From positions 224,001 to 288,000 of the forward strand of contig OZ241867.1 in assembly GCA_965203175.1 (NCBI GenBank): a DNA stretch of 64,000 bases, in the 5' to 3' direction. The translations under genes and the position numbers were made by a program. Of this stretch, positions 45,931 to 63,463 are shown one piece after another (positions within the stretch are counted from its first letter, which is position 1; every line of letters starts with the position of its first letter). Below the pieces are notes generated by a model. That model searched no databases and was not told the origin of the DNA. It saw only the letters and a list, made by a program, of their open reading frames with translations. Source of the stretch: Candidatus Latescibacterota bacterium. GTDB lineage: Bacteria > Latescibacterota > UBA2968 > UBA8231.

Positions 45931-45954
45931 GGTGGGTTACAGAGCGGGACCTTT

Positions 45955-46959: not shown

Positions 46960-46976
46960 TGGCAATTTCCCGCGAG

Positions 46977-47011
46977 AAAAGCTGCGCGGCGCACGTCCTG
47001 TGCGCCGCGCA
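46977..47011 (-). terminator. GC-rich hairpin with short U tract (terminator or mRNA-stabilising stem)
   Basis: TGCGCGGCGCAC-N5-GTGCGCCGCGCA, a 12-bp stem, followed on the minus strand by GCTTTT. Confidence 0.65.
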
Positions 47012-47021
47012 ACGGTCGAAC

Positions 47022-48044: not shown

Positions 48045-48083
48045 GGAATGGCCTCCTATTTCTCTCTTTGATATCCCGTGCAC

Positions 48084-51000: not shown

Positions 51001-51329
51001 CCGATCTCGTACGTCTGGCCGCCTACGCGCAGTTCTTGGTCATTGCCGTCCTTGACCCGACCGCCCCAGATCATGCCGTCTTGGAAGATGACTTGGGCGG
51101 TTGAGCGCGGGTAGGTCACGCCCGAATTGCCGGTGAGCGGGTCGCGAGCCGACCACCCGTCGCTCTGTATCCACATGGCCATATTGTTGATGTTGAGCTG
51201 GGTCCGTTCGGTGGACACCTCGACATCGTCTTGGGCCAATTTGGCGGCCGGTGCGCCCCGCTCTTCGCGTGCTTGGACATTGCCAACTAGGAAGAGCGCC
51301 GCCAAAAATAAGAAAACAAGCTTTTTCAT
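48084..51329 (-). CDS. Large acidic secreted protein with T9SS-like/FlgD C-terminal domain
   Basis: Signal peptide; WSDPDLG, GYDFLQGP, GDRR; FN3-like FEGYNLY..YYFAVTAY; C-terminal VFPNPY..IRIFDMSGTLVR..WDLQN..VASGMYI. Confidence 0.85.
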   Translation of the reverse strand: MKKLVFLFLAALFLVGNVQAREERGAPAAKLAQDDVEVSTERTQLNINNMAMWIQSDGWSARDPLTGNSGVTYPRSTAQVIFQDGMIWGGRVKDGNDQELRVGGQTYEIGTVPGVIESKGVAQDRDTARLYRIRRDWATADLRLDASEVLNMGLSQVTDAHEEAVRAQYGRDWEEWPAELGAPFYDNDGDGQYDPSVDEPGLANADQVIWFAINDLDQGATTNLYGSLPIGLEAQVTLWGYARTDALGDVIFKKFKVIYKGTAEATDDAVIEDMYFAQWSDPDLGDYGDDFAGADVDLSLGYVYNSIDDDHSYVSFGLAPPAVGYDFLQGPIVPVYQLDEDGNIAVDEDGNQLLDESSVAIFNEGLRPGYQNLPMTAFVYFAAGSAISDPELGEYVGTQEWYNLLRGFQPQDDVENPVPYTNPLTNADTKFTLDGDPTRATGWNDGVPLPAGDRRIVLATGPFEMALGDTQEVVVALLGGISTDRLRSVSKLKFSNQFVQDAYNNFFQVPKPPTQPNVRIAELDEALILDWGWDDESIQATEGEGSPGFEFEGYNLYQLPSAEATLSQGVKVATFDIENGVTTILGIALDEESGVVLDVPLQIGIDFGIKRNIMITQDHIRSGPLVNGQRYYFAVTAYNRATAEGTATTTLESAPQGLICVPQEPPPGTRYLSEPGAVIPPEHTAGISEGEVEVVVVNPTLTTGHNYQVRFGADEEGHTVWSLIDETGGTTLLADQFEIGPGDARAAIYLPDHGFELMVLGPPLALSDWEWEGSDRWLTGVNWGGSGIFGGADVGPNFFGSSLGGADLKTVEIRFSRTNTQKGYRYLRGGDPNYAFQDFVDVPFTAWEVDSDPPRQVNIGFVENVGSTSENGTWDLASDEADRNLGGREYLFIFDSDYSDTPLEQYGEGKSILADAVTFDIHAALWVKLRSGDHEMEMLEDGQILRLIPYRVNTANDVFSFLVPGQEENAELLKEDIEKINVFPNPYLGVNAAETSRYSHFVTFSHLPTKANIRIFDMSGTLVRAIEKDDPSQFTRWDLQNHNALPVASGMYIAHIELPDHGMSRILKLAIIQEQQFLENF

Positions 51330-51347
51330 AATGCGTTCCTCTCTTTC

Positions 51348-54300
51348 CTAGAAATTGAACTGCAGACCGAAGCGAATCTGGCGTGGCGAGTCGTAGATAT
51401 CGCCGCCCTCGTTGGACCAATAGGCTTGGCGGTTGGCCAAGTTGATCGCCTCGTAGAGTTGCACGTACTGTTGCCCGCCGCTGGCCTCGACGATCTGTTG
51501 GCTCAGTTCCGGATTGGTCAAGAAGCCATCGTCCTTGTCGGAGCCGGTGCGGTTGTACACGTTGAGCACGTTCTTGCGATTGAAGAGGTTGAGAATACGG
51601 CTATAGACCTTGGCATTGAGACCAAATAGCGAGAAGCCCTTGTCGACGCGCAGGTTGGTATTGAAAGTCCACGGCGTCGTCGAGCGGTTGATCGACTCGA
51701 GCGGCTTGCGCGAGCGCGGGTCGAAGCTGTCGAGTACGCCGGCGTTTTCTGGACCGCGCTGACCGATCGAACCGGTGACCAAGGTAAAGTTGTGCCCGCT
51801 CGTGAAGCTCATCAGCAGGTTGGCCCCGAGACCCCGCAGAATTGGGTTGGGCTCGTTGTCGGGGTAGCGGTAGTCTAGGAAGATCGAGCCGCGGTGCGTC
51901 TCGTTAAAGTCGAGCGGCGAGATGATCGTCGGCAGGTTGGTCTCGTTCTCAACCCCGGAAATGGCCGAGCCAGTATACGAACCCGTGCCGCGTGCGTCGG
52001 ACAGGGTGTAGTTCAGTTCGGTGCGTAGGTTATTGACGCGCCTGAGCTTGAACTGGAACTCAATGCCCTTGGTCGTGGCGAAGTCGCCGTTTTGCAGGAA
52101 AACGTACGCACCAGCGTCAACCGCGCTAGCCGAGAGTTGCTGCTTGCGCAACTGTATCTGCCCTTTGATGTCGCGGTAGAAGCCCGTGACGTCAAAGGAA
52201 GCGGACTCGGAGAACTGACGCTCAAAGCCGATTTCGTACTGGGTAGTCCGCATCGGCTCGATGTCGTAGGCGGTCGGATAGCGGATGTAGTTCTGGCCGC
52301 CCAACTCTAGGGCAAGGCGCGCGCCGCCGGCATACATGGAGCGCATCGCCGGCATTTGCGAGAAGCGCCCGTATTGCACGTGAAAAACCGTCAAATCCGA
52401 CACTGGGAACGACATCCCCAAACGCGGGCTAATATCGGTGTAGGTGGGAGTCTTTTCCATCGACGCGAGATCAATGGTGTAGTTTTTCGAGTCTCGCACC
52501 GGTGCTGCCGGATCCTTAAAGCGCCAGCTATCCGCGTCGAAGTAGTCGATGCGCAGACCGGCGTTGATGATCAGGTCGTTATACTCGACCTTGTCTTGGA
52601 TAAAGGCAGCGGCTACCGTCGGATGGCGCGGTGCCTCTAGCCCCTCGCGGTCGGTCTCGCGACCGAACTCGTCGAAGCCAAAGAAATCGCTGGCACTAGT
52701 CGAGCGCAGCAACCTAACAAGATCCTGCTTGCTACCCTTGCCATCTTCAAGACTCTCGGCCTTCTTGAGCAGTTCGTCGAGGATCTGGTCTTCGCTTATC
52801 TCATCGTTGTAGTAGCGGTCGTACACCGCGTCCAGCTCGGGATAGGTGTTGGCTATCCCCGAGCGGATCGAACGCAACGAGATCCCATAGCGCCGCGTGG
52901 TCCAATTCTGGTAGTCGAAACCGGCCTTAAGCTGATGCATGTCGGTTTGCTTGGTCCAGCTACCGGCCAGCCCCCAATAGCCATCCGACGTGGTGCTGTA
53001 GGAGGTCGTACGCGAACCCGGGCGGCTGAAGGGAAAGCCAGCCAGATCGTAGAGCCTGGGCCCCGAACCTTGCTGGGTATAGGGCGTGTACTCACCCGTG
53101 CCCTCGAGGGCGCGCTGTACGGCCACGCTGTCGTTGTACACCCACCACCGATCTTTGAAAAGCGGGTCGTAGGACTCGGCACTCCGCTCGTAGCGGCTCA
53201 CGTTGAGTTCGTAGAACATGCTCTTGTCGAGCAGGTGGGTGATCTTGGCGTTGACTAGGTTGGAGGACGCATCCGACTCGCGCAGACGCCGGGTGTTAAA
53301 AACATTGCGGATGGGCGTGTAGTTGCTTTCAGAAAACCCGTCCGTGTACAGATTCGTGAGGCGGACCTGGACAGGATAGTAGTCGAGCAGCAAGGTCCCG
53401 TTGAAAATGACCGCTTCACTACTCGTGTGCGGAATATTGCCGGGCTTGATTTCGAGCTGCTCGATCTGGTCGGGAACGAGATTGCCTTCTTCGTCCTCGC
53501 TCCAGTGCCGGCGTCCACCGCGGAGGCCAGTGTCTTCGAGATCCTCGAAGGTAAATCCCGACCAGTAAGTCGGCCAGGAACCGATGCCGCGGCGCTGGCC
53601 AGCCAAGAAGGCGCGAATCTTCTGGTTTCCCACAACCGGACCACCGGCGGTCATCACCTGATTGAAGTAGCCGTAGGAATACGTGCCAAAGCGCTGCTCG
53701 TAGTCGTTGGTAAAATTGTCCGACTCAGAGAGGATTTCGAAGTCCCACTCGCTGCCGCCGGTGCGCAACTCTTGCAGAATAATGCCGGCGTTGGCACCGC
53801 CGTACTCGGCGTTAAAGCCGCCGGCCTGGAGCTGGATTTCCTCCAGCGCCTCGTCGATCAGGCCCACCGCGCTGCTGCCAGTGACCACATTGCGGACGCT
53901 GGCCCCCTCAACGTAGTAGCCGATCTCGTCGCTGCGCGAGCCGCGGATGTGAAGCGACCCCTCATCTTCAACCACGCCGGTCTGCAGGGCTATGACTGAA
54001 CTGACACCTCGGAGCGGCAGAATCTCGAGATCTTCAGCATCGATAATGCGCACCGCATTGGTGGCGGTTTTGTCGATGATCGGCCGCTCGGCGCGGATTA
54101 CTACTTCCTCGACCTGGATATCCGAAGAAGTCAATTCAACGGCGATATTCGTGGTCAGGTCGGCGGAGACCCGCACGTCCTCGACGGTATAATCCGCGTA
54201 GCCGATATACGTGGCCTTGAGGGTGTAGGTGCCCGCTGGCACGTTGAGAATAAAAAAGCGGCCCTTTTCGTCCGCTGTAGCCCCTAGCTTGGTATCCACC

Positions 54301-54458
54301 ACCACGATATTGGCATGGGGCAGCCCATCCCCAGTGGCGGCATCCTTGATGACACCGGCGATCTTGCCGCCCGTACTGGCCCCGGCTGGAGCCAAGCTCA
54401 GCGCGAGCAGGACGCCCAGTGCGGTCAAGACGCGAAAAACGCTCGCAAATTTAGTCAT
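51348..54458 (-). CDS. TonB-dependent receptor with carboxypeptidase-regulatory-like N-domain
   Basis: GKIAGVIKD..G, IRGSR plug, GGFNAEYG, NAGLR, SPRLG, NLFN, C-terminal PRQIRFGLQFNF. Confidence 0.93.
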   Translation of the reverse strand: MTKFASVFRVLTALGVLLALSLAPAGASTGGKIAGVIKDAATGDGLPHANIVVVDTKLGATADEKGRFFILNVPAGTYTLKATYIGYADYTVEDVRVSADLTTNIAVELTSSDIQVEEVVIRAERPIIDKTATNAVRIIDAEDLEILPLRGVSSVIALQTGVVEDEGSLHIRGSRSDEIGYYVEGASVRNVVTGSSAVGLIDEALEEIQLQAGGFNAEYGGANAGIILQELRTGGSEWDFEILSESDNFTNDYEQRFGTYSYGYFNQVMTAGGPVVGNQKIRAFLAGQRRGIGSWPTYWSGFTFEDLEDTGLRGGRRHWSEDEEGNLVPDQIEQLEIKPGNIPHTSSEAVIFNGTLLLDYYPVQVRLTNLYTDGFSESNYTPIRNVFNTRRLRESDASSNLVNAKITHLLDKSMFYELNVSRYERSAESYDPLFKDRWWVYNDSVAVQRALEGTGEYTPYTQQGSGPRLYDLAGFPFSRPGSRTTSYSTTSDGYWGLAGSWTKQTDMHQLKAGFDYQNWTTRRYGISLRSIRSGIANTYPELDAVYDRYYNDEISEDQILDELLKKAESLEDGKGSKQDLVRLLRSTSASDFFGFDEFGRETDREGLEAPRHPTVAAAFIQDKVEYNDLIINAGLRIDYFDADSWRFKDPAAPVRDSKNYTIDLASMEKTPTYTDISPRLGMSFPVSDLTVFHVQYGRFSQMPAMRSMYAGGARLALELGGQNYIRYPTAYDIEPMRTTQYEIGFERQFSESASFDVTGFYRDIKGQIQLRKQQLSASAVDAGAYVFLQNGDFATTKGIEFQFKLRRVNNLRTELNYTLSDARGTGSYTGSAISGVENETNLPTIISPLDFNETHRGSIFLDYRYPDNEPNPILRGLGANLLMSFTSGHNFTLVTGSIGQRGPENAGVLDSFDPRSRKPLESINRSTTPWTFNTNLRVDKGFSLFGLNAKVYSRILNLFNRKNVLNVYNRTGSDKDDGFLTNPELSQQIVEASGGQQYVQLYEAINLANRQAYWSNEGGDIYDSPRQIRFGLQFNF

Positions 54459-54491
54459 ATGTCCCTCCTTTGTAGGGTACTCAATACCCCT

Positions 54492-55205
54492 TCACATCAG
54501 GCGCAACCAGTCGTCTAAGAGAAAGGTCACACGCCCGATCAACAGCGAGACCCTCGCCATAATGGTGTAACCAAAAGAAGCCCCAAACGAGATCATCAAA
54601 AACCATATCCCCACCTTGGAGATGTGGCCCGCCGTGCCGGTGTGCTCGACGGAAAAAAAGAAATAAACCAACACCCCGATGACCCCCACGAGGACGATCA
54701 GCAAATTGAGCCCCTCCAAGCTCCAGGTTAGTGGTTTTAATGTAGGTTCTATTTGGGCCAAAATAAAGGAAGAAATATAGCGGGGAATCGTCAGGCCAGC
54801 CGCGAGCCCGACAAAGAATGCAAAAGCATAGCGGCTGAGCCAACCGAAGCGCAGCGAAAAGCGCGTCAACATCAACAGCCCGAGCACCGTCGGAGCCAAA
54901 AGCCACCAATTGGGCGTCTCCCCTTCCCCCGGATTGGTCCATTCGGCAATAATCTCGCCGTAGAGCGTCGGGTACCAATTCTGACCGAAAATGTAAGCCG
55001 CTGCCACGCCGACGAAAACGTGCTCGGCAAACTTAAAAAGAGGGTTATCCTTGTAGAGAAAACTATAGAGCGCCAAGGTCATGCCCGCCGCAACAATGAT
55101 GCCCAAGCCCGTCCAGTCCGCCGCCAAGGTCCCGTTGGCCACTAAGCCGATATTGACAGCGACAAACAGCAAAAGCAAGCCCAGAAAAATATACGTATCG
55201 CGCAC
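54492..55205 (-). CDS. Uncharacterised multi-TM membrane protein
   Basis: About 7 TM segments; YSFLYKDNPLFKFAEHVFVG, YFFFS, MISFGASFG. Confidence 0.85.
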   Translation of the reverse strand: MRDTYIFLGLLLLFVAVNIGLVANGTLAADWTGLGIIVAAGMTLALYSFLYKDNPLFKFAEHVFVGVAAAYIFGQNWYPTLYGEIIAEWTNPGEGETPNWWLLAPTVLGLLMLTRFSLRFGWLSRYAFAFFVGLAAGLTIPRYISSFILAQIEPTLKPLTWSLEGLNLLIVLVGVIGVLVYFFFSVEHTGTAGHISKVGIWFLMISFGASFGYTIMARVSLLIGRVTFLLDDWLRLM

Positions 55206-55208
55206 GGC

Positions 55209-56024
55209 TTAGCTCTCCTGTTGCAATCGGCCTCGCCGACTGGCGAAGTAAGCGATATTGCCAAAGATCACGAAAGCTACAATGATCAAATGGGTAACCG
55301 ACTGGGGAGGCATGCTCTTATTCGCCTCATCGCGGTGGTCAATCAGAACCTCGTAGGCGGCTGCACCGGCCAAGCCGCCGAGCAGGCCCACGAGTTGGCC
55401 CGAGCCGAGGAATGGATAGAGGTCTGGTGCCACCACTGCGGTGCAGCCGGCGGCAAAAGGAAAGCCGTATTTCTCCTGCCCGTAGGGAATCCACCAAAAC
55501 TCAATCGAATCCCCGGCCCCTAGGTCGAAAACGAGGTCGAAATCCCTCAGTGAGCGCACACTCCGCATCAATTCCAAATCGCCAACATCTGCGCCCCAAT
55601 TGTCCTGCGGGAAGGTGCCGTGTACGTCGTGCCCCATATTGAGAACGACGCTAAAATTGCCCGGCTTGTAGCCCATAAAGGTGTAATCCACCCCGTACTC
55701 CAAGTCGAATTCAGCCGTCATTTTGTCGAGCACCGCTTGAGCTAACCCGGTCGCTTCAGGCCACAGGCAGATGGCGACGACCTTGAGCTCGCGGCGAAAC
55801 GCGTGGCGCAAAACCGCCCGCGCCATGGGCTGCATCTCAGGAGCCGTGCTGGCACCGTAAGAAAAAGAGACTAAGACGACCTGCCCGGCGTCAAGTTGCT
55901 CGACTTGGTCGTAAGCCGCTCTCACCTGCTTGGACGGCGTGATCGGCAGGTCTAGCCCGACCAAGAGCGGCACAGCCACTCCGATAAACATCAAAGCAAA
56001 GAGGATGCGGCGATCAATCTGCAT
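55209..56024 (-). CDS. Uncharacterised membrane-anchored alpha/beta protein (probable DUF6754 paralogue)
   Basis: N- and C-terminal TM segments flank a soluble domain; LVGLLGGLAGAAAYE; start overlaps the upstream stop (TGATG). Confidence 0.85.
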   Translation of the reverse strand: MQIDRRILFALMFIGVAVPLLVGLDLPITPSKQVRAAYDQVEQLDAGQVVLVSFSYGASTAPEMQPMARAVLRHAFRRELKVVAICLWPEATGLAQAVLDKMTAEFDLEYGVDYTFMGYKPGNFSVVLNMGHDVHGTFPQDNWGADVGDLELMRSVRSLRDFDLVFDLGAGDSIEFWWIPYGQEKYGFPFAAGCTAVVAPDLYPFLGSGQLVGLLGGLAGAAAYEVLIDHRDEANKSMPPQSVTHLIIVAFVIFGNIAYFASRRGRLQQES

Positions 56025-56683
56025 CACTCGTCTCCTCCACCGCCCAAGTACGAACGCTCAATGCCGAAGATGATCCGCAGCGAGGTCGCGATGGCCCCTA
56101 GGGACACCCCGAGCAGAATCCCGCGCTTGGCCGCTAAATTCGGCACGCTCATCAGCCACTCGCTCACCAGCGGAAAATACTCGGAGATCTCTCGGCCAAT
56201 GGGCACCTGGCCTAGCATGACGATCACCGCTGCGACCAGCAACAGCGCGGCCTCGGGCGTGCGGGCGCGGAAGGTTCGGTAGGCCGCCGAAGCGATAAAA
56301 AAAGCCAAGATCGAGAACATAGTCCCCGAACAGGGCTGATGAACGTAATTGAAGAGCCAATTATAGCCCCCGGCTTCGGCCTGGGCGGCAAAGGGGCCGT
56401 GCCCATCGTTGTAGATAACGAAGAACATCATCAGCACAAAGCTGGCGATGGCAACGAAGCTGTAGCCCCAACCGACGACGTGCTGGCGGATCCGCTGCCA
56501 ATGCAGGTTGAGTAGGCTGTAGAGTCCAAGTAGATAAGAAAACGCGAAGACAATACGCACCCACAGCGCCATTTCTTGTTCAAAACTCTGTGCATTACCG
56601 TGCGGTATGTAGTAGATGGCAATGCCTAGCAGGCCAAAGACTAAGGCGACGGCCAGTGGTAAAGTCCGGCTAAAAAATGGCAT
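56024..56683 (-). CDS. Uncharacterised multi-TM membrane protein
   Basis: About 6 TM segments; LAFFIASAAYRTFRART.EA, GQVP, VPNLAAKRGILLG. Confidence 0.85.
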   Translation of the reverse strand: MPFFSRTLPLAVALVFGLLGIAIYYIPHGNAQSFEQEMALWVRIVFAFSYLLGLYSLLNLHWQRIRQHVVGWGYSFVAIASFVLMMFFVIYNDGHGPFAAQAEAGGYNWLFNYVHQPCSGTMFSILAFFIASAAYRTFRARTPEAALLLVAAVIVMLGQVPIGREISEYFPLVSEWLMSVPNLAAKRGILLGVSLGAIATSLRIIFGIERSYLGGGGDE

Positions 56684-56692
56684 GGCCCCTCC

Positions 56693-57985
56693 TCAATAAG
56701 GAGTAAAGAAGTGGGTTAGCTGGGGCAGCTCTAAAGCCGCCAAGATTGCGCCCAACACCAAAGCGGCTAAAATAAGGGCCTTGCCGGCGTCCTGGCCCTT
56801 GAGGGAGCCGAGCATTCTCGGCTCACCCGATAGATAAGCACTGGCTGCATAGAGCTCTTCGCCGAGCAGGGTATAGTCGCAGGTAGTAATAAAGAACGGC
56901 AACTGGGTGAAGGCATCGGTACCAGCGATCTGGATCGCCCCGGTCGTCGAACCTGTCTCGGCCAATAGCAGCGACTCAGCGTAGAAGTACCCCATCATAA
57001 TGTGAGCTGCCGGGCGATCGCGAACCATGATGCCCTCGACTGCCGCAGCGTAGCTAAACTGCTCGGTACCGGCGATGAAGACATGGTCTGGATTGAAAGC
57101 ATCGGGCCGTCCCGCCTCGACATACGAGGCTTTCATCGTCTCCTGACTCACAGATAGAACCACCGGGTCTGGGGCCACCACCCGCAGCGCAGTGTCGTAT
57201 TCGGCAGTGCGCCGTGCAACCCGTCCCAAGATATTGACCGCGGCAATGGTCGATATCGAGTCCATGCCGCGCAGGCCGTGAATGAAAAGCACCGGCTTGC
57301 CCATCTCGGTCGCCCGCCCTAGCGCCTCGTCGAGTGCCTCTAATCCGGCGATGCGGCGGATCTTGAGTTCGCGTCGCCGCGCAATGCCAATGTAGCCCAT
57401 GATGAGCCCTGAGAACACGAGGCACAACACTAGGTTATTGACCTTGGCGTCATTAAAAAAATTGCCTTTGGACTCGGCGTTGACGATCACCTTGCCGCGG
57501 ATCGCACCGCCGGCCGACCGCACATCGATGTGAAAGTAATACGTCTTGCCGTCTTCTAACGGCGTCTTGCCGCCCGTGCCAGCGAATTCCTCGACGTTGA
57601 CATAGTGATGATTCTCCAGATCGGCCCCACGACCAAAGAGCGCCGGCACCTCGGACATAAAATTCTCCATTGCCGCAACCTCGGTCACGACGCGAAAAGG
57701 CCCGCTGGGCGAATCGGCGATGGCGACCTGATACATCGCATTTTCGCTGATCTGACGATCTCGCTGCCAAGTCAGCGTAATGCTGCCCCCGTCGTCGTTG
57801 GGCGTGTCGAAGGCTTGGACCTCAATCGGTGGCATAGGATGTGCTAGCAACTCGCCGAGTTCCTGTTCTTCGACCGGCGGCGCAGGGTCTGTCAGCAACG
57901 TGCCGATCCCCAGTGTCTCATCTTCCGCCGCGCTCGCCAATGGCCAAGCCAAGACTAATGCAGACAGCCAGTTTTTTGCTCTCAT
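56693..57985 (-). CDS. FN3-like plus DUF6754 membrane protein
   Basis: Signal peptide; DTPNDDGGSITLTW..TYYF; TM; IRRIAGLEALDEALGRATEMGKP, FYAESL, LLGEELYAASAYLS; GAGGA RBS before ATG 57985. Confidence 0.85.
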   Translation of the reverse strand: MRAKNWLSALVLAWPLASAAEDETLGIGTLLTDPAPPVEEQELGELLAHPMPPIEVQAFDTPNDDGGSITLTWQRDRQISENAMYQVAIADSPSGPFRVVTEVAAMENFMSEVPALFGRGADLENHHYVNVEEFAGTGGKTPLEDGKTYYFHIDVRSAGGAIRGKVIVNAESKGNFFNDAKVNNLVLCLVFSGLIMGYIGIARRRELKIRRIAGLEALDEALGRATEMGKPVLFIHGLRGMDSISTIAAVNILGRVARRTAEYDTALRVVAPDPVVLSVSQETMKASYVEAGRPDAFNPDHVFIAGTEQFSYAAAVEGIMVRDRPAAHIMMGYFYAESLLLAETGSTTGAIQIAGTDAFTQLPFFITTCDYTLLGEELYAASAYLSGEPRMLGSLKGQDAGKALILAALVLGAILAALELPQLTHFFTPY

Positions 57986-57989
57986 GCCT

Positions 57990-59105
57990 TTATTCCTCAA
58001 TCAGCTCCACATTCGCCCGTGGCACTACCGCCTGCTCCCCGTCTTCAAACTCCACGGCCAATACCCGCACCCGCGCCCCGGACTCCACCGCGCACAGCTC
58101 GGTCGGCAAGTCGCTGACACGGCCGATCCGACCAAAATAGGGCATCCGAATCACCCGCAACAAATCGCCCACCTGCAATCCACCCGCGCCCGGCCGCACC
58201 TCTTCTTCCTCTTTGTCGGCGGCCGTGGGGACGATAATCTCCGGCCGCAAGACGCCAGCGCGGATCTGCGTTGCACCGGCCATGGACGCATCCATGCCAG
58301 CGCACGCCTGCAGAATATCAAAGGTCTTACGCGCCATGGCGACGCGGCCAAAACCCTCAGTCGCTACCACGGTCAGGCCGATTTGCTCGGTCCCGGTGAT
58401 GGCCACGCCCAAATCGCGACCGAGCAAGTCGCGCAAGTCGCGGTCGCGCAGGCCGCCGCCGATCAACCCCACAGCACCTGCCTGCCGGGCCTGTTCCACA
58501 GTCTCTGCGCTAATCAGGCTGCCGACCACTACAATCTTGCCCGCAACTTCCGGGCCCAGCGACCCGGCCGTGGCGTCTGGGGCATCAACCGCCAAGTGCA
58601 GTGCGCCCCAGCACTCGCCTCCCACGCCAAAAATGCCTTGGATATAAGCACCTCGCGCTGCGACGCGCACGCCCTCCTCGGCAAAAACTTCCTCTATGAC
58701 CCCATCGACGTAAGCCAGCACTTCGACCGGCCTAGGAGCTTGGCGCAATATCACCTGCCCCGTCACCGGCGAAATGCTCTCGACGGTACCGCTAACTGGG
58801 GATTCAACTGTGGTCTTGAACCAGCGAATAAATGGCTTAGTCTCGGCGAGTGGCTCGCCGGCTGCGACGCGGTCGCCTTCTTTCTTGAGCATATAGCCGA
58901 CTAGCTCTTGCGGCGAGATGCCCAAGCGGTTGACCAAGTTGAGAGTTGCCACCTCGCCCGGCAGTTCGGTGCGGGCCACGACTTGGTCGCGTCGCACCGC
59001 TTGGCCGCGTTCGACGACAACTTCGCCTTTGAGGGGCAAACGTCGCTCTTTGTCGACGACTGCGTATTGCGTCACGCGCAGTCCAGGGGTATAGGCGTGG
59101 GCCAT
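57990..59105 (-). CDS. Uncharacterised soluble protein with barrel-sandwich-hybrid repeats and a KOW-like C-terminus
   Basis: AYTPGL; GEVVVERGQAV, KKEGDRVAAGEPLA, ESPVSGTV; TEGFG; GATQIRAGVLRPE; VGDLLRVIRMPYFGRIG. Confidence 0.85.
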   Translation of the reverse strand: MAHAYTPGLRVTQYAVVDKERRLPLKGEVVVERGQAVRRDQVVARTELPGEVATLNLVNRLGISPQELVGYMLKKEGDRVAAGEPLAETKPFIRWFKTTVESPVSGTVESISPVTGQVILRQAPRPVEVLAYVDGVIEEVFAEEGVRVAARGAYIQGIFGVGGECWGALHLAVDAPDATAGSLGPEVAGKIVVVGSLISAETVEQARQAGAVGLIGGGLRDRDLRDLLGRDLGVAITGTEQIGLTVVATEGFGRVAMARKTFDILQACAGMDASMAGATQIRAGVLRPEIIVPTAADKEEEEVRPGAGGLQVGDLLRVIRMPYFGRIGRVSDLPTELCAVESGARVRVLAVEFEDGEQAVVPRANVELIEE

Positions 59106-59108
59106 GAG

Positions 59109-60890
59109 CTACTCGTATAGGTTTAACGCCTGCTGCCAGTCGCTTATCTGACGCCGGCGGTCTTGATCTGACGCCATCTGGATGGGCCGACCGCGACCGT
59201 CCAGCACTAGCCCCACAATCCCACCGCGCACCCGTGCATTTAGGGCTTGCCCTGGGCCAGCACCCACATCCCAACGCCGCGCCGGCTGGAGCGAGACTTC
59301 GACCTCCTCGCCATCGGCTAGGGGCATCCACTGTAGCTGACCGACCTGCAACTGGCCGGTTTGACGCCCGCTGGGCAGTTCTATCTCGTACTGGAGGCAG
59401 ACCTCGCCGTCCTTACCCTCGCCGACGGGGGCCACACAAGTGCCCAAGTAGATCAGGCAATCGCGCTCGAAAACCTCGGTGGCGGCCCGCTCGTCCACAG
59501 TCGAGAGCACCCCTAGGTGGGGCATCATGAAGATGCTATCGACCGCCAAGCGGGTGATGCCTTCGGGCTGGAAAGCATCTATGAGCATAGCGCAACTCTG
59601 CTCGCGGCGGGGCGCATGCGATAGCACTCCACCGCTGCCGACTATCATGTCCAGCGCCATCATCTCGACTAAACTCTCGCCGGTGGCACCCTGCTCAAAT
59701 ACATCGGCCAGCGTGCGCTTGCTCTGCACCCCCTTCAATCCCACCGCCAACGCCCGGTGCTGGTCAAAAGCCAAGCGCAGGGCTTCGCGGGCAATGGCTT
59801 GTTCTACTTGCAACTCCTGCATGAGCTGCGGGATGGTCGTCGGGCGGATCATCTTGTTCTTGATCCGGTCGCGTAGATCGGCTTCCTCAATGTCAAAAGG
59901 AACCCAGCGCATAATTTGGTCGAGGCCGGCCTCGGCCAGCACGTTGGAGACGCTATAGGACATGCCGAGATTGGCACTGACCGTGCGGTTGAACACATCG
60001 TCGAAGACGCTGAACACATCGGTCGTCGCCCCGCCGATATCCACGCCGACGACGTTGATCTCCTGCTGGCGGGCAATGGTCTGCATGATCTCGCCCACCG
60101 CCCCGGGCGTCGGCATAATCGGCGCGCTGGTCCAGTCCATCAGCGTGCGGTAACCCGGTGCCTGCGCCATGACGTGTTCGAGGAAGAGGTCGTGAATGAC
60201 GTGCCGCGCCGGGTCCAGATTTTCCTCTTCGAGCACGGGGCGGATATTCTCGGTAACGGTCAGAGCCATCTTCCCTCCCAGCGCCTTTTCAACTTCCTCG
60301 CGCGCGTCCTCATTGCCCGCAAAAATAATCGGCAACTGAAAGTCTGCGCCAAAGCGGGGCTTGGGATCGGCCGCGCTGATGAATTCGGCCAACTCGACCA
60401 CGTGGCTGACGGTGCCGCCATCCGTACCGCCCGACAGCAGCACCATATCGGGGCGCAATTGGCGGATGCGCTCTATTTTTTCGTGCGGCAAGCGCCCGTC
60501 GTTGGCAGCGAGCGCGTCCATGACGATCGCCCCGGCACCCAAGGCGCAGCGCTGCGCGCTCTCGCCGGTCATTGCCAGCACCACGCCGGCCACCACCATC
60601 TGCAACCCGCCGCCCGCACTGCTCGTCGAGATGTAGATATCGACCCCAACATCGCCGTCTGCCGGTGTGATAATCCGCTCGCCATCGAGGATCTGCCGGC
60701 CGGAAAGCTCCTCGACCTCCTGAATGGCATTGAGCACCCCCCGGGTAACGTCCTCAAAAGGGGCCTCGACCGTGGTCGGGGCCTCGCCGCGAAAGGTCTG
60801 GCGATACCCTTCGTCCTTCTTTTCGATCAAGATCGCCTTGGTCGTCGTACTGCCGCAGTCCGTGGCGATAACTACGTTGAGGTTATCCAT
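59109..60890 (-). CDS. GlmL/MutL-like (glutamate mutase L family) ASKHA ATPase
   Basis: DCGSTTTK, SSAGGGL, SGGTDGG, FAGN, PTPGAV, DIGGATTDVFS, GSGGVL. Confidence 0.88.
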   Translation of the reverse strand: MDNLNVVIATDCGSTTTKAILIEKKDEGYRQTFRGEAPTTVEAPFEDVTRGVLNAIQEVEELSGRQILDGERIITPADGDVGVDIYISTSSAGGGLQMVVAGVVLAMTGESAQRCALGAGAIVMDALAANDGRLPHEKIERIRQLRPDMVLLSGGTDGGTVSHVVELAEFISAADPKPRFGADFQLPIIFAGNEDAREEVEKALGGKMALTVTENIRPVLEEENLDPARHVIHDLFLEHVMAQAPGYRTLMDWTSAPIMPTPGAVGEIMQTIARQQEINVVGVDIGGATTDVFSVFDDVFNRTVSANLGMSYSVSNVLAEAGLDQIMRWVPFDIEEADLRDRIKNKMIRPTTIPQLMQELQVEQAIAREALRLAFDQHRALAVGLKGVQSKRTLADVFEQGATGESLVEMMALDMIVGSGGVLSHAPRREQSCAMLIDAFQPEGITRLAVDSIFMMPHLGVLSTVDERAATEVFERDCLIYLGTCVAPVGEGKDGEVCLQYEIELPSGRQTGQLQVGQLQWMPLADGEEVEVSLQPARRWDVGAGPGQALNARVRGGIVGLVLDGRGRPIQMASDQDRRRQISDWQQALNLYE

Positions 60891-61218
60891 GCTTTTGGCT
60901 TTCGCGCTGGACAATGGCCTCCGCAAGTAAGTCTATGCACTGGCGTCGCTCCAACATGCGCGTAAAGCGCTGGTACTCGTCGCGCGAAAAAACCAGCGTG
61001 GCAAACGGGGACAAAAAGGTCAGGGCCTGACTGCCCAAAAAATTGAGGGGGCGGCAAGCCTCCAACGCCATGGACGCGGCCACTCCCATCCGGCGACGCA
61101 CTAGAAACTCGGCCAGCCGCTCGGCGAGCGCGCGCTCTTCCTCAGACCAACCTGCCTCCGGGTCTTCAAGGGCGAAAGCGTGCCGCCATCGCGCTTTTAA
61201 GCTATTGACTTGGAACAT
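60883..61218 (-). CDS. Small hypothetical protein
   Basis: Overlaps both neighbours; LEACRPLNFLGSQ..LSPF. Confidence 0.75.
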   Translation of the reverse strand: MFQVNSLKARWRHAFALEDPEAGWSEEERALAERLAEFLVRRRMGVAASMALEACRPLNFLGSQALTFLSPFATLVFSRDEYQRFTRMLERRQCIDLLAEAIVQRESQKHG

Positions 61219-61618
61219 GGCACCGGACGAAACGCGCGACTTCTTCGCGGTTTTTATCGAACCGCAAGAAAACGCCGCGAAAGGAATCTAGCCGACCCGG
61301 GCGGGCGGACGGGCGCAAAAAAATACCGTCCCGATGCTCATCTGCTCGACGGAATTCCGCCCAAGAACGGCGCTGTTTAAAGCCGAGGTGTTCGCTGCTG
61401 ACTCCTTCGCCGTCGAGCACGTAGTACGTAGGAAAGAAATAGCGCGACAACGAGGCGGTCAATGCTCCCAGTGAAAATATCCCGTAGAACCAATGCTCAA
61501 AACCAAAAGCAGCAGCCGCTGAGGAAGCGACGATGAGCACGACTAGCAGTATCGACTTTGCCGGCCTCTCCCGGCGCAGGGGGTGGCTCTCCCAGCGAAG
61601 GGCGTCTGTGGAGGACAC
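61202..61618 (-). CDS. Two-TM protein with a PH-like (YcxB-type) tail
   Basis: WESHP, 2 TM, YFFPTYYVLDGEGV..RRSWAEF..GVFLRF. Confidence 0.75.
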   Translation of the reverse strand: MSSTDALRWESHPLRRERPAKSILLVVLIVASSAAAAFGFEHWFYGIFSLGALTASLSRYFFPTYYVLDGEGVSSEHLGFKQRRSWAEFRRADEHRDGIFLRPSARPGRLDSFRGVFLRFDKNREEVARFVRCHVPSQ

Positions 61619-61630
61619 GGACGCTCCCTG

Positions 61631-63463
61631 TTAGTACATCTGCTCTTCCTGCGCGACCCACCAGTCTTGCAGGCGGACGCCGGGGGGATACCAAGTGACG
61701 CCACTGAAGCGGCGGCTGTAGGCTTGGGGAGAGCGCGACTTCCACATGAAGGTGTACGGCTGTTCCTCATGCAGGATTTCCTGAAAGCGGCGGTAGAGTT
61801 CGATGCGCTTGTCTATGTCGAACTCGCGGCGGTAGGTCTCTAAGATGTTGTCAACTTCGTCGTTGATAAAGCTCACGTGATTGGAGCCGTTCTCCACTGT
61901 TTGGGAGGAATGCCAGATCTGGTAAGCGTCGGGAGCAAAGCGCAAGCTGCCGGTCCAGCCCAACACCATTGCGTCGAAGTTCTTGCCTTTGACCTTTTGT
62001 AGGAAGATCGACCAGTCTAGCTCGCGCACTTGGCAGTCAATGCCAATATCCTGCAGTTCGTATTGCACCGTCAGAGCGATGTCTTTGCGAAGCTGGTTGC
62101 CCGAGTTGATCAAGATCTCAAAGCTGAATGGCACCAACTCCCCATCGATGGTCTTGTCGAGAATGCCGTCCTCGTCAGCGTCTGCCCAGCCAGCCTCCGC
62201 CAGCAAGTCGAGGGCGCGGTCGGGATCGTACGTGTACGGCACGAGATCGTGGTTGTATTCGGGACGGAACTTGTTGATCGGCCCCTCCACCGTCTCGGCC
62301 AAACCGAACATGATGTTCTCCACCATACCCTCGCGGTCGGTCAAATAGGTCATGGCTTGGCGCACCCGCTTATCGCCGAAGATTGGATGGTTGTTGTTCC
62401 ACCCGATGTACAGATATCCACTGGAGTAGCTAACGCCTTTGAGGAAGCGGCGGTTAAAGTCGTCCGACCAGCTCTTTTCCTTGAACTCCAGAGGACGTAA
62501 GCCGTGGTAGTCAAGATGGCCGTTGGTCAACTCTATGAACGCCGCATCGGTATTGTTGATGATCTTAAAGACCACCTTATCGACAAAGCCCGACGGCAAC
62601 AGTTCCTCTATATCCCGACCCCAGTAGTTTTCATTCCGCGTCAGCACGACTTTCTGCTGGGTGACCAAATCGCGCTCTGGATCTTCGATCAAGTACGGCC
62701 CCGACCCAAGGGCCTTGCGATTGAAATTTTGGTTGAACTGTTGGGCAAAGCGCTCGACCCGTTCTTTGTGTGGCCCCACCTCCCAAGAGCCATCCACCAA
62801 GCTCTTGAACTCGACAGGGTCCATCAGCCCCTCCGGGTCGTAGAAATGCTTGGGCAGGATGTAGAAGCCACCCAAGATCAGGTCATTGCGGAAATAAGGC
62901 TCGCGGCAAAGGAAGCGGACCTTGTTCGTCCCCACGATCTGCACGTCTTGCACGGTAGCATAGTAGTTGCGCAGATGCGGCGCTAGTACTTGGGGGTTGT
63001 GGATAACTTTCATACTGAAGACGACGTCCGCAGCCGTCAGCGGCTTGCCGTCTGAGAAGTAAACCCCGTCGCGCAACTCAAACGTGTACGCAAGTTTGTC
63101 CGCGGCAACTTCAGGATAATCAACGGCCACCCAACCCCGCAGGTTGTACGGCGGATCGTGGCCAGCGTCGAGTAACCTTTCAAAGATAAGTTCCAACACC
63201 TGGCTGGCACCGGCATCGCTGGAGGTGTACGGGTTGAGTTTCTCAGGGTCGGATAGCATGTGGCGCACCATCCAGTCGCCGTGGGTCGGTGCTTCTTCTC
63301 CCTCGTAGCGCAGCGGCCCCTTCTCGGTGCCGTTGAGCACGACGATATCCTTGGTACTCATGAGGATTTTCTGCACCTCCTCCCACGCCTCCTCAGCGGC
63401 GGCATGACCGCCTACGCAGACACCCAACCAAGCGGCCACTATAGACATTCTAACTTTCGGCAT
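61631..63463 (-). CDS. oppA: Peptide ABC transporter substrate-binding protein (family 5)
   Basis: DPEKLNP, FELRDGVYFSDGKPLTAADVVFS, GSGPY, DKRVRQA, EILHEEQPY. Confidence 0.92.
   Translation of the reverse strand: MPKVRMSIVAAWLGVCVGGHAAAEEAWEEVQKILMSTKDIVVLNGTEKGPLRYEGEEAPTHGDWMVRHMLSDPEKLNPYTSSDAGASQVLELIFERLLDAGHDPPYNLRGWVAVDYPEVAADKLAYTFELRDGVYFSDGKPLTAADVVFSMKVIHNPQVLAPHLRNYYATVQDVQIVGTNKVRFLCREPYFRNDLILGGFYILPKHFYDPEGLMDPVEFKSLVDGSWEVGPHKERVERFAQQFNQNFNRKALGSGPYLIEDPERDLVTQQKVVLTRNENYWGRDIEELLPSGFVDKVVFKIINNTDAAFIELTNGHLDYHGLRPLEFKEKSWSDDFNRRFLKGVSYSSGYLYIGWNNNHPIFGDKRVRQAMTYLTDREGMVENIMFGLAETVEGPINKFRPEYNHDLVPYTYDPDRALDLLAEAGWADADEDGILDKTIDGELVPFSFEILINSGNQLRKDIALTVQYELQDIGIDCQVRELDWSIFLQKVKGKNFDAMVLGWTGSLRFAPDAYQIWHSSQTVENGSNHVSFINDEVDNILETYRREFDIDKRIELYRRFQEILHEEQPYTFMWKSRSPQAYSRRFSGVTWYPPGVRLQDWWVAQEEQMY

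Follow-up and report, generated by a model that had tools for sequence, protein, structure and literature searches.

ASKHA (actin/Hsp70-fold) proteins include many kinases, and the proteins that assist B12 enzymes are regarded as ATP-dependent chaperones. In the diol/glycerol dehydratase reactivase (DdrAB type), an actin/Hsp70-fold ATPase is combined with a swivelling domain and ATP is used to pry open the partner protein. The Pfam family DUF6754 (PF20539) is only catalogued; the literature library searched yielded no paper on it or on the gene system described here, and no experiment on any member of the set was found. Here, we present an in-silico analysis of eight genes from a sponge-associated bacterium that bring an ATPase of this fold together with a DUF6754 protein. 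The gene set is very conserved and widespread, and its ATPase is mislabelled as a vitamin-B12 enzyme helper.

Layout, conservation and neighbours of the gene set

The window, a 64,000-nucleotide stretch of the genome of a Candidatus Latescibacterota bacterium, carries at 54492-61618 eight co-oriented minus-strand ORFs that overlap or nearly abut (Table 1). The set can be divided into an ATPase part (g2, g3 and g4) and a membrane part (g5, g6, g7 and g8). As calculated from the ORF coordinates, g1 and g2 overlap by 17 nt, g4 and g5 by 11 nt and g6 and g7 by 4 nt, while gaps of 3 nt (g3/g4), 9 nt (g5/g6) and 3 nt (g7/g8) separate the others. The g2/g3 overlap amounts to 44 nt if g3 begins at the listed TTG, or to 8 nt if it begins at an ATG twelve codons inward; this ATG may be the true start, and it is where the alignment conservation of g3 begins. 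All seven junctions are therefore as the earlier note described them, with either an overlap or a gap of at most 9 nt. RNA-library contigs from two runs extend across the boundary between g5 and g6, with 0 and 1 mismatches, such contigs being no proof of transcription.

Table 1 Genes of the eight-gene set and Opp-like genes in the window.
Feature	Coordinates	Strand	Description
g1	61202-61618	-	138 aa; small membrane protein; first gene of the set; lineage-restricted
g2	60883-61218	-	111 aa; small protein accompanying the ATPase
g3	59109-60926	-	605 aa; long-form MutL/GlmL-type ASKHA (actin/Hsp70-fold) ATPase
g4	57990-59105	-	371 aa; soluble ATPase partner; barrel-sandwich hybrid, swivelling beta/beta/alpha domain and KOW/SH3-like barrel
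g5	56693-58000	-	435 aa; signal peptide, exported FN3, TM, DUF6754, C-terminal TM
g6	56024-56683	-	219 aa; polytopic membrane protein
g7	55209-56027	-	272 aa; N-terminal TM, ~180-aa domain, C-terminal TM
g8	54492-55205	-	237 aa; polytopic membrane protein
OppA-like solute-binding protein (SBP_bac_5)	61631-63463	-	PF00496, E 1.2e-74
OppB-like ABC permease	44635-45930	-	BPD_transp_1 with BPD_transp_1_N or OppC_N (OppB/OppC pair)
OppC-like ABC permease	43591-44634	-	BPD_transp_1 with BPD_transp_1_N or OppC_N (OppB/OppC pair)

The set was compared across 80 related loci, 65 of Latescibacterota type and 15 of Planctomycetota type. Of the 80, 59 have all eight genes collinear and in unchanged order, and 75 have g5-g8 together, the five misses falling at locus or contig ends; such conservation places the arrangement far beyond chance. 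Mean column identity across the two phyla ranges from 65 to 77% in g3-g8: 77% for the DUF6754 domain alignment, 75% for g3 (25 sequences), 70% for g4, 70% for g6 (30 sequences), 66% for g8 (29 sequences) and 65% for g7 (29 sequences). The ATPase part and the four-protein inner-membrane unit are inherited together, and both stay in one genome even when split apart. Five anammox genomes (2.9-3.9 Mb) hold a stand-alone g5-g8, and all five carry a 69-71% identical g3 elsewhere. DUF6754 is present in 33 of 121 Planctomycetota genomes and a g3 relative in 31, each of these 31 also having DUF6754, while 88 of the 121 have neither; this near-identical pattern, together with the collinear loci and the split anammox genomes, answers in the affirmative the question of the earlier note whether the genes co-occur elsewhere. 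In three Planctomycetota genomes a single g3 is accompanied by two DUF6754 genes, spaced 3.3-3.5 kb from each other.

These distributions also bear on the possibility that g3 and g4 form a maintenance factor resembling a GlmL-related reactivase, which would spend ATP occasionally to assemble, reset or repair g5-g8, the latter working without ATP as a secondary transporter or a membrane enzyme. The frequent unlinking of the two parts in anammox genomes and the ability of one ATPase to accompany two membrane units are in line with such a role, as are the closest named relatives of g3, which are accessory proteins of B12 enzymes, and the swivelling domain that g4 has in common with the diol dehydratase reactivase. 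However, the almost perfect match of presence and absence (31/33 versus 0/88) and the 75% mean column identity of the ATPase are explained at least as well by a stoichiometric core subunit as by a helper. Computation separates neither reading from the other, and we judge a maintenance role unlikely.

The immediate neighbours are those reported earlier. Upstream lie the SBP_bac_5 gene (the OppA-like gene of Table 1), which is separated from g1 by 12 nt, and a branched-chain aminotransferase fragment; the gene downstream resembles a TonB receptor. The 80 related loci gave no support for a link to the TonB-receptor module that goes beyond local neighbourhood. Opp genes recur more broadly: of the 65 Latescibacterota-type loci, 34 carry an OppA relative adjacent to the set or inserted between g3 and g4, and 52 have at least one Opp component within 10 kb, in at least four different orders. 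One recorded order is g1-g3 / OppA-B-C / g4-g8 / OppD-F, and in other loci of this type g3 and g4 are separated by OppB/OppC relatives and the corresponding ATPase pair follows g8. This interleaving is newly found here. The scan of the window itself covered positions 31265-64000 and revealed no OppD/F gene, and the closest OppD/F-type ATPase pair of the genome lies at 5.434-5.436 Mb. Opp neighbours are kept only in the Latescibacterota lineage, where 13 of the 65 loci are devoid of any Opp component; none of the 15 Planctomycetota-type loci has them, the neighbours there being heterogeneous. The Opp link could be inherited gene order, nothing more.

The interleaved orders and the 52 loci with an Opp component could also indicate that in Latescibacterota the set feeds, gates or regulates OppABCDF and has no autonomous function. 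This is highly improbable in view of the Planctomycetota-type loci, the 13 loci without Opp, the five split-cluster anammox genomes checked, all of which keep the set, and a distribution of the set far wider than its Opp linkage. Moreover, a complete canonical Opp beside the set speaks against the set itself being the peptide permease. Support for the peptide or amino-acid transporter envisaged in the earlier note is circumstantial, namely the Opp interleaving in Latescibacterota-type loci and three M1 peptidase fusions (described below); the 15 Planctomycetota-type loci are devoid of Opp neighbours.

The ATPase part

The g3 product matches Pfam MutL (PF13941) end to end (E 1.1e-128, residues 19-490) and shows no variation in its phosphate-1, phosphate-2 and adenosine motifs among 25 relatives, which agrees with its description as an actin-fold ATPase with intact motifs. 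It is single copy in the genome and has a conserved C-terminal extension of ~115 aa. The Pfam match, the relatives named 'glutamate mutase L' in public records and the three B12-binding domains of the genome would suit an ordinary GlmL, helping a coenzyme-B12-dependent mutase encoded elsewhere. That reading is already contradicted: g3 falls below all three curated GlmL cut-offs (the equivalogs NF040745, 233 versus 475 bits, and NF040744, 216 versus 600; the subfamily model TIGR01319, 163 versus 204), glutamate mutase E (Met_asp_mut_E) has no match in the genome, which is 93% complete, and more than 1.5 Mb separates the set from the B12-binding domains. Its partners are g4 and DUF6754 rather than mutases; DUF6754 occurs in 40 of 41 relatives, as opposed to glutamate mutase E in 1 of 41. 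We consider an ordinary GlmL almost certainly wrong. The set has no link to B12 mutases, in keeping with the earlier view that the ATPase is not a mutase helper and with the absence of a B12 mutase from the window.

No match to g2 was found in Pfam, NCBIfam or PADLOC. In Latescibacterota-type loci its relatives immediately precede g3; four loci of Planctomycetota type (L072, L073, L074 and L086) also have one, with 33-41% identity.

The g4 product (AlphaFold model pLDDT 85.4) begins with a barrel-sandwich hybrid, for which Pfam RnfC_N (26.8 bits versus a cut-off of 25.6) and Biotin_lipoyl both score above their cut-offs, and ends in a KOW-like barrel recognized by structural matching of the separate domains; both ends conform to the soluble barrel-sandwich/KOW protein predicted from the sequence. 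The alignment of relatives has no invariant histidine in the swivel domain, which makes a PTS-type phosphotransfer relay unlikely. Fusions of g4 and g3 are common and occur in many lineages; 42 of 43 longer g4 relatives carry PF13941, and of the 11 long forms of g3 one was checked by BLASTP (E 6e-26). In three long forms the ATPase is joined to an M1 peptidase domain that is exported. One of these, which comes from a Bacillota MAG, has 1332 aa and two close relatives, and is composed of a signal peptide, the M1 peptidase, a TM helix and the ATPase. The zinc motif of the peptidase domain is intact in the 1332-aa fusion, and the layout places the ATPase at the inner membrane face.

The membrane part and its exported domains

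The g5 product is a full-length member of DUF6754 (E 2.7e-111, residues 178-431) with TM segments at 189-207 and 408-426 by crude hydropathy. Residues ~50-180 adopt an FN3 fold, all 50 of the 50 best structural matches being FN3 (Z 9.3-10.7), so that the FN3+DUF6754 composition given in the earlier note holds, the one by structure matching and the other by Pfam. The DUF6754 domain itself folded poorly in structure prediction (pLDDT < 50). Across the family (2369 clusters at 50% identity) DUF6754 is always C-terminal, and the part preceding it ranges from ~50 to 1070 aa. Binding-type N-terminal domains were found in 12 of 46 long forms scanned (10 PQQ_2 propeller, 1 fn3, 1 HEAT), and an enzyme domain in the N-terminal part of none of the 46.

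Hydrophobic segments, five to six in g6 and typical of membrane proteins in g7 and g8, fit the assignment of all three as membrane proteins by crude hydropathy only. Weak Acyl_transf_3 matches occur in 4 of 30 g6 members, among which no Pfam family is consistent and for which no PDB relative was found; g7 and g8 have no Pfam or PDB relative, and the Atlas clusters nearest to g7 consist of unnamed proteins from Fidelibacterota, Chloroflexota and Latescibacterota. No relationship was detectable between g7 and g5 or between g8 and g6, no resemblance to a known transporter family was found for g6 or g8, and no solved structure related by sequence was found for g3-g8. The g1 product has one strong hydrophobic segment in the same type of scan and a weak, sub-threshold match to Pfam TgpA_N (15.7 bits versus a cut-off of 30); its tblastn matches are confined to Latescibacterota-type loci, with none in the 15 Planctomycetota-type loci (E <= 1e-5).

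Ectodomains of the scaffold type (FN3, BamB-like propeller, HEAT) raise the possibility of envelope biogenesis or export, in which the machine would move or anchor a surface component outward (a protein, a lipid-linked glycan or a surface layer) with the g5 ectodomain as scaffold. The window copy adjoins an outer-membrane receptor-like gene, a gene for a T9SS-tailed protein and a PorV-like gene, and two Planctomycetota loci have LpxK in the vicinity of the set. These neighbours are, however, local, the TonB-receptor-like gene being retained in only some of the Latescibacterota-type loci, and Pfam detects no glycosyltransferase or flippase domain in the set; an export function is, in our estimation, doubtful. 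A variable ectodomain on a constant cytoplasmic domain would also suit a sensor whose exported domains bind an external cue, the ASKHA protein serving as cytoplasmic output in the manner of the many kinases of this group, acting on a small molecule or a protein. Against this, Pfam finds no DNA-binding, response-regulator or second-messenger domain in the set, four membrane proteins would be a large number for a sensor, and the set occurs in one copy, with extremely conserved polytopic subunits; we consider signalling very improbable.

Proposed machine and its relation to known systems

Overall, the eight genes are best read as one copy of a conserved two-part, ATP-coupled trans-membrane machine, a predicted function in which our confidence is evenly balanced, and which possibly serves peptide acquisition as a putative role. 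The g3 ATPase, which we infer to be the motor, would bind and hydrolyse ATP in the cytoplasm, and g4 would relay its nucleotide-dependent movement to g5-g8, the most likely route being the near-invariant DUF6754 domain on the cytoplasmic side of g5. Outside the membrane, a ligand would be handled by the exported domain of g7 and by that of g5, a binding domain which varies (FN3 in this set, a beta-propeller or others elsewhere), and the polytopic g6 and g8 could constitute the membrane path, with uptake being the likelier direction of transport. More speculatively, the interleaving of the set with the genes of one Opp importer in Latescibacterota suggests that the cargo or process there may be linked to the acquisition of oligopeptides.

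Among described systems, GlmL/MutL (the glutamate/methylaspartate mutase accessory protein) and the GlmL-related Or-4 of ornithine degradation belong to the same ASKHA fold family as g3. Unlike them, g3 reaches no more than about half of either equivalog cut-off and stays under that of the subfamily model, has the additional conserved C-terminal residues and, with no mutase gene nearby or co-occurring, has g4 and a four-protein membrane unit as constant partners. The diol/glycerol dehydratase reactivase offers the same two elements as g3 and g4, an ATPase and a swivel; in contrast to it, these are separate or end-to-end fused proteins, g4 adds the barrel-sandwich and KOW-like domains, and the proposed partner is a membrane complex instead of a B12 enzyme. 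The N-terminal barrel-sandwich of g4 matches those of NqrA and RnfC, peripheral subunits of Na+-NQR and Rnf (Z 7.6-7.9, 25-28% identity over ~65 residues, VIA-align), but it is the only domain shared, the NqrA equivalog model giving 16 bits versus a cut-off of 450, and the set is without Fe-S, flavin or NADH domains and without Rnf/Nqr membrane subunits. Unlike ABC and ECF-type importers, the set has an actin-fold ATPase, a P-loop ATPase and an ABC permease fold being undetected in g1-g8. The resemblance to these importers is one of working principle and not of membership: a cytoplasmic ATPase part is combined with exchangeable membrane units bearing differing exposed binding domains, and in Latescibacterota an Opp importer is encoded in the same neighbourhood.

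Composition and phyletic distribution of the gene set

The eight minus-strand genes g1–g8, in which g2–g4 form the ATPase part and g5–g8 the membrane part, are tightly packed. By their coordinates, neighbouring genes overlap at four junctions (17, 44, 11 and 4 nt) and are separated at three (3, 9 and 3 nt), the 44-nt overlap shrinking to 8 nt if an inner ATG is used. Searches against Pfam and curated models left g2, g7 and g8 without a match and returned only sub-threshold matches for g1 and g6, and membrane segments in g1 and g5–g8 were supported by a crude hydropathy scan. The open reading frames, junctions, domain searches and hydropathy bear out the eight-gene description of the earlier note, apart from exact helix counts and the PH-like label of g1. 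The set is real and the core inference drawn there, that the ATPase belongs with the membrane genes and not with a B12 mutase, is supported, while the transporter reading is still hypothetical. None of the eight proteins matched a PADLOC anti-phage defence model at E <= 0.01, and a defence-system reading was dropped on that account.

The host assembly is a single contig of 6.58 Mb (93% complete) that has a single gene each of MutL type and of DUF6754 type. Public runs from 13 studies contain the stretch, many of them labelled sponge metagenome. Four metatranscriptome libraries carrying that label yielded contigs over parts of the stretch, of which two span the g5/g6 junction (one of 527 nt without differences, the other of 601 nt with a single one) and one spans g7/g8; such contigs denote presence and are no proof of transcription, and their depth cannot rank the genes.

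Coordinates of the gene set, its flanking features and features of related loci
Feature	Sequence	Position	Strand	Details
g1–g8 open reading frames	window	54492-61618	minus	138, 111, 605, 371, 435, 219, 272 and 237 aa respectively
OppA-like gene	window	ends 12 nt ahead of g1	minus	SBP_bac_5
TonB-receptor-like gene	window	starts 33 nt past g8	minus	
Genes past g8	window	47022-54458	minus	TonB-receptor-like, 1081-aa T9SS-tailed protein, PorV-like
Terminator-like hairpin	window	46981-47013	minus	14-bp stem, 11 G-C pairs, T-rich tail
g4 tail, residues 1-8	window	59082-59105		
Unnamed ORF past g8	L072	9293-10231	opposite	
Unnamed ORF past g8	L074	13415-14362	opposite	
Unnamed ORF past g8	L080	13856-14836	opposite	
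Unnamed ORF past g8	L092	14503-15477	opposite	
Lipoate-protein ligase A/B-like gene	L047	5355-6185		
Transposase-like gene	L037	5953-7533		DUF772
Small inserted gene	L074	9505-9867		
Small inserted gene	L080	11211-11582		
Small inserted gene	L092	11427-11894		

Taking one genome per species, a scan for g5 relatives turned up 582 stretches, from which the best 80 loci were retained; Latescibacterota, Gemmatimonadota, Handelsmanbacteria and Planctomycetota, with anammox genera among them, appear in their titles. On the basis of g5 similarity and record title they were split into 65 Latescibacterota-type and 15 Planctomycetota-type loci, one locus titled Planctomycetota (L041) grouping with the Latescibacterota type. 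By tblastn, 59 of these best 80 loci match all eight genes collinearly and on one strand. The membrane genes g5–g8 were complete in 75, the five misses ending at a locus or contig boundary, and g3 was found in 65. Full 10 kb of upstream DNA is present in six of the 15 loci lacking g3 (L080, L082, L083, L085, L089 and L092), and a g3 relative (69-71% identity) occurred elsewhere in all five genomes searched behind split or truncated anammox loci. Among the 15 Planctomycetota-type loci, g1 had no tblastn match and g2 was matched in four. From this presence pattern over the 80 loci, the core of the set is g2–g4 plus g5–g8. Alignments across two phyla gave mean column identities of 75% for g3, 70% for g4, 77% for the DUF6754 domain, 70% for g6, 65% for g7 and 66% for g8, which speaks for strong constraint on every component aligned.

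Small mobile or toxin-antitoxin-like genes lie between g4, g5 and g6 in Planctomycetota loci. The anammox-type loci L074, L080 and L092 hold small unrelated genes between set genes, encoding a 23S rRNA intervening-sequence protein, a PD-(D/E)XK nuclease and a nucleotidyltransferase, so the set tolerates insertions there.

The ATPase and membrane parts are inherited together. Of 121 Planctomycetota genomes drawn evenly, 33 had DUF6754 and 31 a g3 relative (E <= 1e-10), all 31 lying within the 33; the other 88 genomes had neither. The two genomes with DUF6754 and no g3 relative (G095 and G098) carry their DUF6754 genes near contig ends. Copy numbers vary: G058, G086 and G123 each combine one g3 relative with two DUF6754 genes spaced 3.3-3.5 kb apart, G068, G092, G111 and G128 have two DUF6754 genes with two or three g3-type genes, and G057 has two g3-type genes with one DUF6754 gene. 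A second g3 branch (45-49% identity) occurs in G057, G068, G092 and G128. An exhaustive profile search placed 2369 clusters at 50% identity in the DUF6754 family at E <= 0.001 (948 at E <= 1e-30), and the Atlas has DUF6754 clusters with Planctomycetota, Bacillota and Armatimonadota as their commonest phyla.

The ATPase and its soluble partner

Protein g3 matched the Pfam MutL family PF13941 over profile positions 1-450 (E 1.1e-128), which places it among the ASKHA ATPases, and its nucleotide-binding motifs are invariant in 25 sequences. The profile match stops near residue 490 and is followed by about 115 further conserved residues at the C-terminus. Scores against the curated models fell below the cut-off for GlmL (NF040745, 233.3 bits against 475), for Or-4 (NF040744, 216.3 against 600) and for TIGR01319 (162.9 against 204.05).

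GlmL/MutL-family proteins are accessory to B12 mutases, and one condition that would refute the earlier note was that this clade always tracks with such enzymes. It does not: among the 41 relatives of the host genome, one has Met_asp_mut_E and 40 have DUF6754, the sole genome without DUF6754 being 87% complete, and this failure to track supports the interpretation offered there. The host genome itself, at 93% completeness, has no Met_asp_mut_E. A search of it for Lys-AminoMut_A was likewise silent, a weak result since the control was silent too. The host carries three B12-binding domains, at 1.85, 3.24 and 3.71 Mb, and the nearest is more than 1.5 Mb from the window (0.22-0.29 Mb). With three curated cut-offs missed and no mutase nearby or co-occurring, the identity of g3 as GlmL or a B12-mutase helper was rejected, and g3 has no link to B12 mutases.

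Profile searches of the PDB with g3–g8 gave nothing significant. For the partner g4, 26 sequences went into an AlphaFold model (mean pLDDT 85.4), which was compared with known structures. Its N-terminal barrel-sandwich hybrid resembles the N-termini of NqrA and RnfC (Z 7.6-7.9, 25-28% identity) and biotin carboxyl carrier proteins (Z about 8), and Pfam matches to RnfC_N and Biotin_lipoyl barely exceed their cut-offs. Residues of about 130-294 form a swivelling beta/beta/alpha domain, with matches to Enzyme I (2wqd; Z 9.3, rmsd 2.7, 106 aligned), RraA (Z 8.8-9.3), AF_0055 (Z 8.8), the His domain of rifampin phosphotransferase (5hv1; Z 8.5) and the C-terminal domain of pyruvate kinase (Z 7.8-8.0). 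The C-terminal KOW/SH3-like barrel resembles NusG and Spt5 (Z 7-8). As these Z values stand only moderately over the background of the tool, and the fold class is common to many unrelated entries, the folds were accepted and no function was drawn from them.

Two functional readings of these folds were checked at individual residues. A biotin or lipoyl carrier is suggested by fold and Pfam match; the modifiable lysine of such domains, which we take to sit at the hairpin tip and hence at g4 residue 89, is replaced by R, Q or S in part of the 26 sequences and is absent from the invariant columns, and the carrier reading was rejected. A PTS-like phosphorelay through the swivel domain was set aside as well, the sole invariant histidine in the 26 sequences being H2, in the flexible N-terminus and outside that domain. 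Nor is g4 a whole NqrA or RnfC, the match being limited to its N-terminal domain and its score against the NqrA equivalog being 16 bits for a cut-off of 450. A likeness of g3 plus g4 to the alpha subunit of diol dehydratase reactivase (DdrA-like) is putative and may still exist, although this reactivase is absent among the structural matches listed for g4. In the N-terminal tail, H2, Y4, T5, P6, G7 and L8 are invariant in the 26 sequences. Residues 1-8 are predicted to be flexible (pLDDT under 50), and the invariant tail may be a docking or catalytic peptide.

Longer proteins join the two genes. Searching with g4 gave 43 such matches, of which 42 carry PF13941; most of these fusions measure 989-1022 aa and span 99-100% of g4, in metagenome-assembled genomes named Planctomycetota, Neomarinimicrobiota and Cloacimonas. 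Among the 11 longer matches found with g3, P0278 combines a zinc ribbon, the ATPase and a g4-like region (BLASTP E 6e-26, g4 residues 24-292). The joining of g3 and g4 in longer proteins constitutes strong evidence that the two act together.

A different fusion is seen in P0275–P0277 (1332-1334 aa, one named as a Bacillota MAG), built of a signal peptide, an M1 peptidase (E 7e-19), a hydrophobic helix, an arginine run and a long-form ATPase that is 52% identical to g3, C-terminal extension included. The HExxH...E zinc motif of the M1 domain reads as intact, and a g4 part is lacking in all three. With this domain order the ATPase sits on the inner membrane face and, in that lineage, is tied to an externally exposed peptidase. 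A metagenome scan with P0275 recovered M1 peptidases only, a set gene being found in none of 80 loci.

A 707-aa gene call, P0285, appeared to be a g4-DUF6754 fusion. It consists of g4, the g5 signal peptide, the FN3 domain and a truncated DUF6754; as the g4 end reads into the g5 signal peptide, the fusion was rejected, and P0285, which gives no evidence of contact, probably arose as a read-through, gene-call or assembly artefact where g4 and g5 overlap.

Membrane unit and oligopeptide-importer neighbourhood

Protein g5 is a member of DUF6754 (PF20539; 371.2 bits for a cut-off of 27, positions 2-256 of 257, E 2.7e-111), and the best 50 structural matches of its ectodomain are all FN3 domains (Z 9.3-10.7). 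The DUF6754 part, which folded poorly (pLDDT under 50 in AlphaFold with 31 sequences), lies between two hydrophobic helices with arginines after the first, and from this arrangement it should face the cytoplasm. In the best 150 of the 2369 family clusters DUF6754 is always C-terminal and is preceded by about 50-1070 residues. Among 46 long representatives picked by length from these 150, ten have a PQQ_2 (BamB-like) propeller, one fn3 and one HEAT repeats; the other 34 lack a recognisable N-terminal domain, and none has an enzyme domain.

The TM-domain-TM outline is shared by g5 and g7, and g6 resembles g8 in being polytopic, as a duplication of A-B-A'-B' type would give; neither BLASTP nor profile-profile comparison detected homology within either pair, and sequence does not support this reading. 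No consistent Pfam family covers g6 or g8: weak matches of g6 to Acyl_transf_3 (4 of 30 members) and of g8 to DUF3704 (4 of 29) were treated as chance, being inconsistent across members.

On the minus strand of the window, the order is an ilvE-like gene, an OppA-like gene, g1–g8, and TonB-receptor-like, T9SS-tailed and PorV-like genes, followed by a hairpin, a TPR gene, and OppB-like and OppC-like genes. This hairpin is the strongest terminator-like one of the region and lies directly past the PorV-like gene; from its position, the OppA-like to PorV-like genes may form one long transcription unit, apart from TPR-OppB-OppC. The TonB-receptor-like protein has an N-terminal carboxypeptidase-regulatory-like domain, and the 1081-aa protein is without a recognisable domain apart from its T9SS sorting tail; their genes adjoin the set in only a subset of Latescibacterota-type loci.

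The genes of one oligopeptide ABC importer (OppA, B, C, D and F) occur around and inside the set in several orders, an arrangement that was not part of the earlier description. In the window, the set and its Opp-like neighbours together span 43591-63463. In seven loci (L037, L045, L046, L050, L052, L053 and L055) the order is g1–g3, OppA-B-C, g4–g8 and two OppD/F-type ATPase genes, L046 being truncated with g1–g3 outside. In L047 and its relatives g1–g8 are followed by OppD and OppF, and in L029, L054 and L065 g8 is followed by a TPR gene (absent in L065), OppB and OppC. A DUF772 transposase-like gene sits between the OppB-like and OppC-like genes inside the set in L037, and in one Latescibacterota lineage (L047) a lipoate-protein ligase A/B-like gene is directly upstream of g1. 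The scanned part of the window (31265-64000) holds no OppD/F gene. Pairs of OppD/F type occur elsewhere in the host, in some cases with no OppC_N match nearby; the ATPase pair adjoining g8 in other loci is 61-72% identical to the host pair at 5.434-5.436 Mb, 5 Mb from the window. ABC_tran and BPD_transp_1 domains are confined to the neighbouring genes, with none in g1–g8.

Counted at >= 40% identity within the locus flanks, at least one Opp component was present in 52 of the 65 Latescibacterota-type loci (three of the 13 without one are short) and in none of the 15 of Planctomycetota type; the Opp linkage is thus lineage-specific. It could be inherited gene order; yet it persists through several rearrangements. 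Planctomycetota flanks are heterogeneous, with LpxK, HNH and restriction-modification genes. In four of these loci an unnamed ORF of 313-327 aa, without a Pfam family, lies past g8, followed in two by LpxK.

Proposed mechanism and comparison with known systems

In the mechanism that we propose, g3 would hydrolyse ATP, g4 would pass movement on to the cytoplasmic DUF6754 domain, g6 and g8 would form the membrane path, and the exported domains of g5 and g7 would handle an external ligand. A motor acting in every cycle and a reactivase-like maintenance factor are both candidate roles for the ATPase, between which sequence does not decide. The Opp interleaving and the M1 fusion together point to a peptide theme; peptides are the best lead for the cargo in Latescibacterota and give a testable hypothesis. 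Extended to many uncultured phyla, the proposal is that an ASKHA ATPase with a swivel adaptor replaces the P-loop ATPase and energises exchangeable four-protein units with different exposed binding domains, which would capture peptides or other oligomers with high affinity and import them; in this complete form we offer it as a tentative idea that may well prove wrong.

To our knowledge, all well-studied ATP-driven membrane transporters and envelope machines rely on a P-loop or P-type ATPase, and a widespread machine on an actin-fold ATPase would, if true, amount to a novel principle of design and would set right the "glutamate mutase L" label on some public g3 relatives. The family is large and strongly conserved, and its lineages dominate poorly understood habitats (sponge symbionts, anammox bacteria and marine groups).

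A literature search, with subscription journals largely outside its reach, found no paper on DUF6754, PF13941, PF20539 or a GlmL-like membrane system. Overall, the set is categorically new relative to published systems, and the window contributes a Latescibacterota member together with its peptide-related context. The nearest named family to g3 is GlmL/MutL, whose curated GlmL models it does not satisfy, and g4 shares single domains with NqrA/RnfC, carrier, swivel and KOW proteins, of which it lacks both the defining residues and the remaining domains. In its tandem membrane units per ATPase and its variable binding-type ectodomains, the set recalls the logic of ABC and ECF importers, from which it differs in the fold of the motor.
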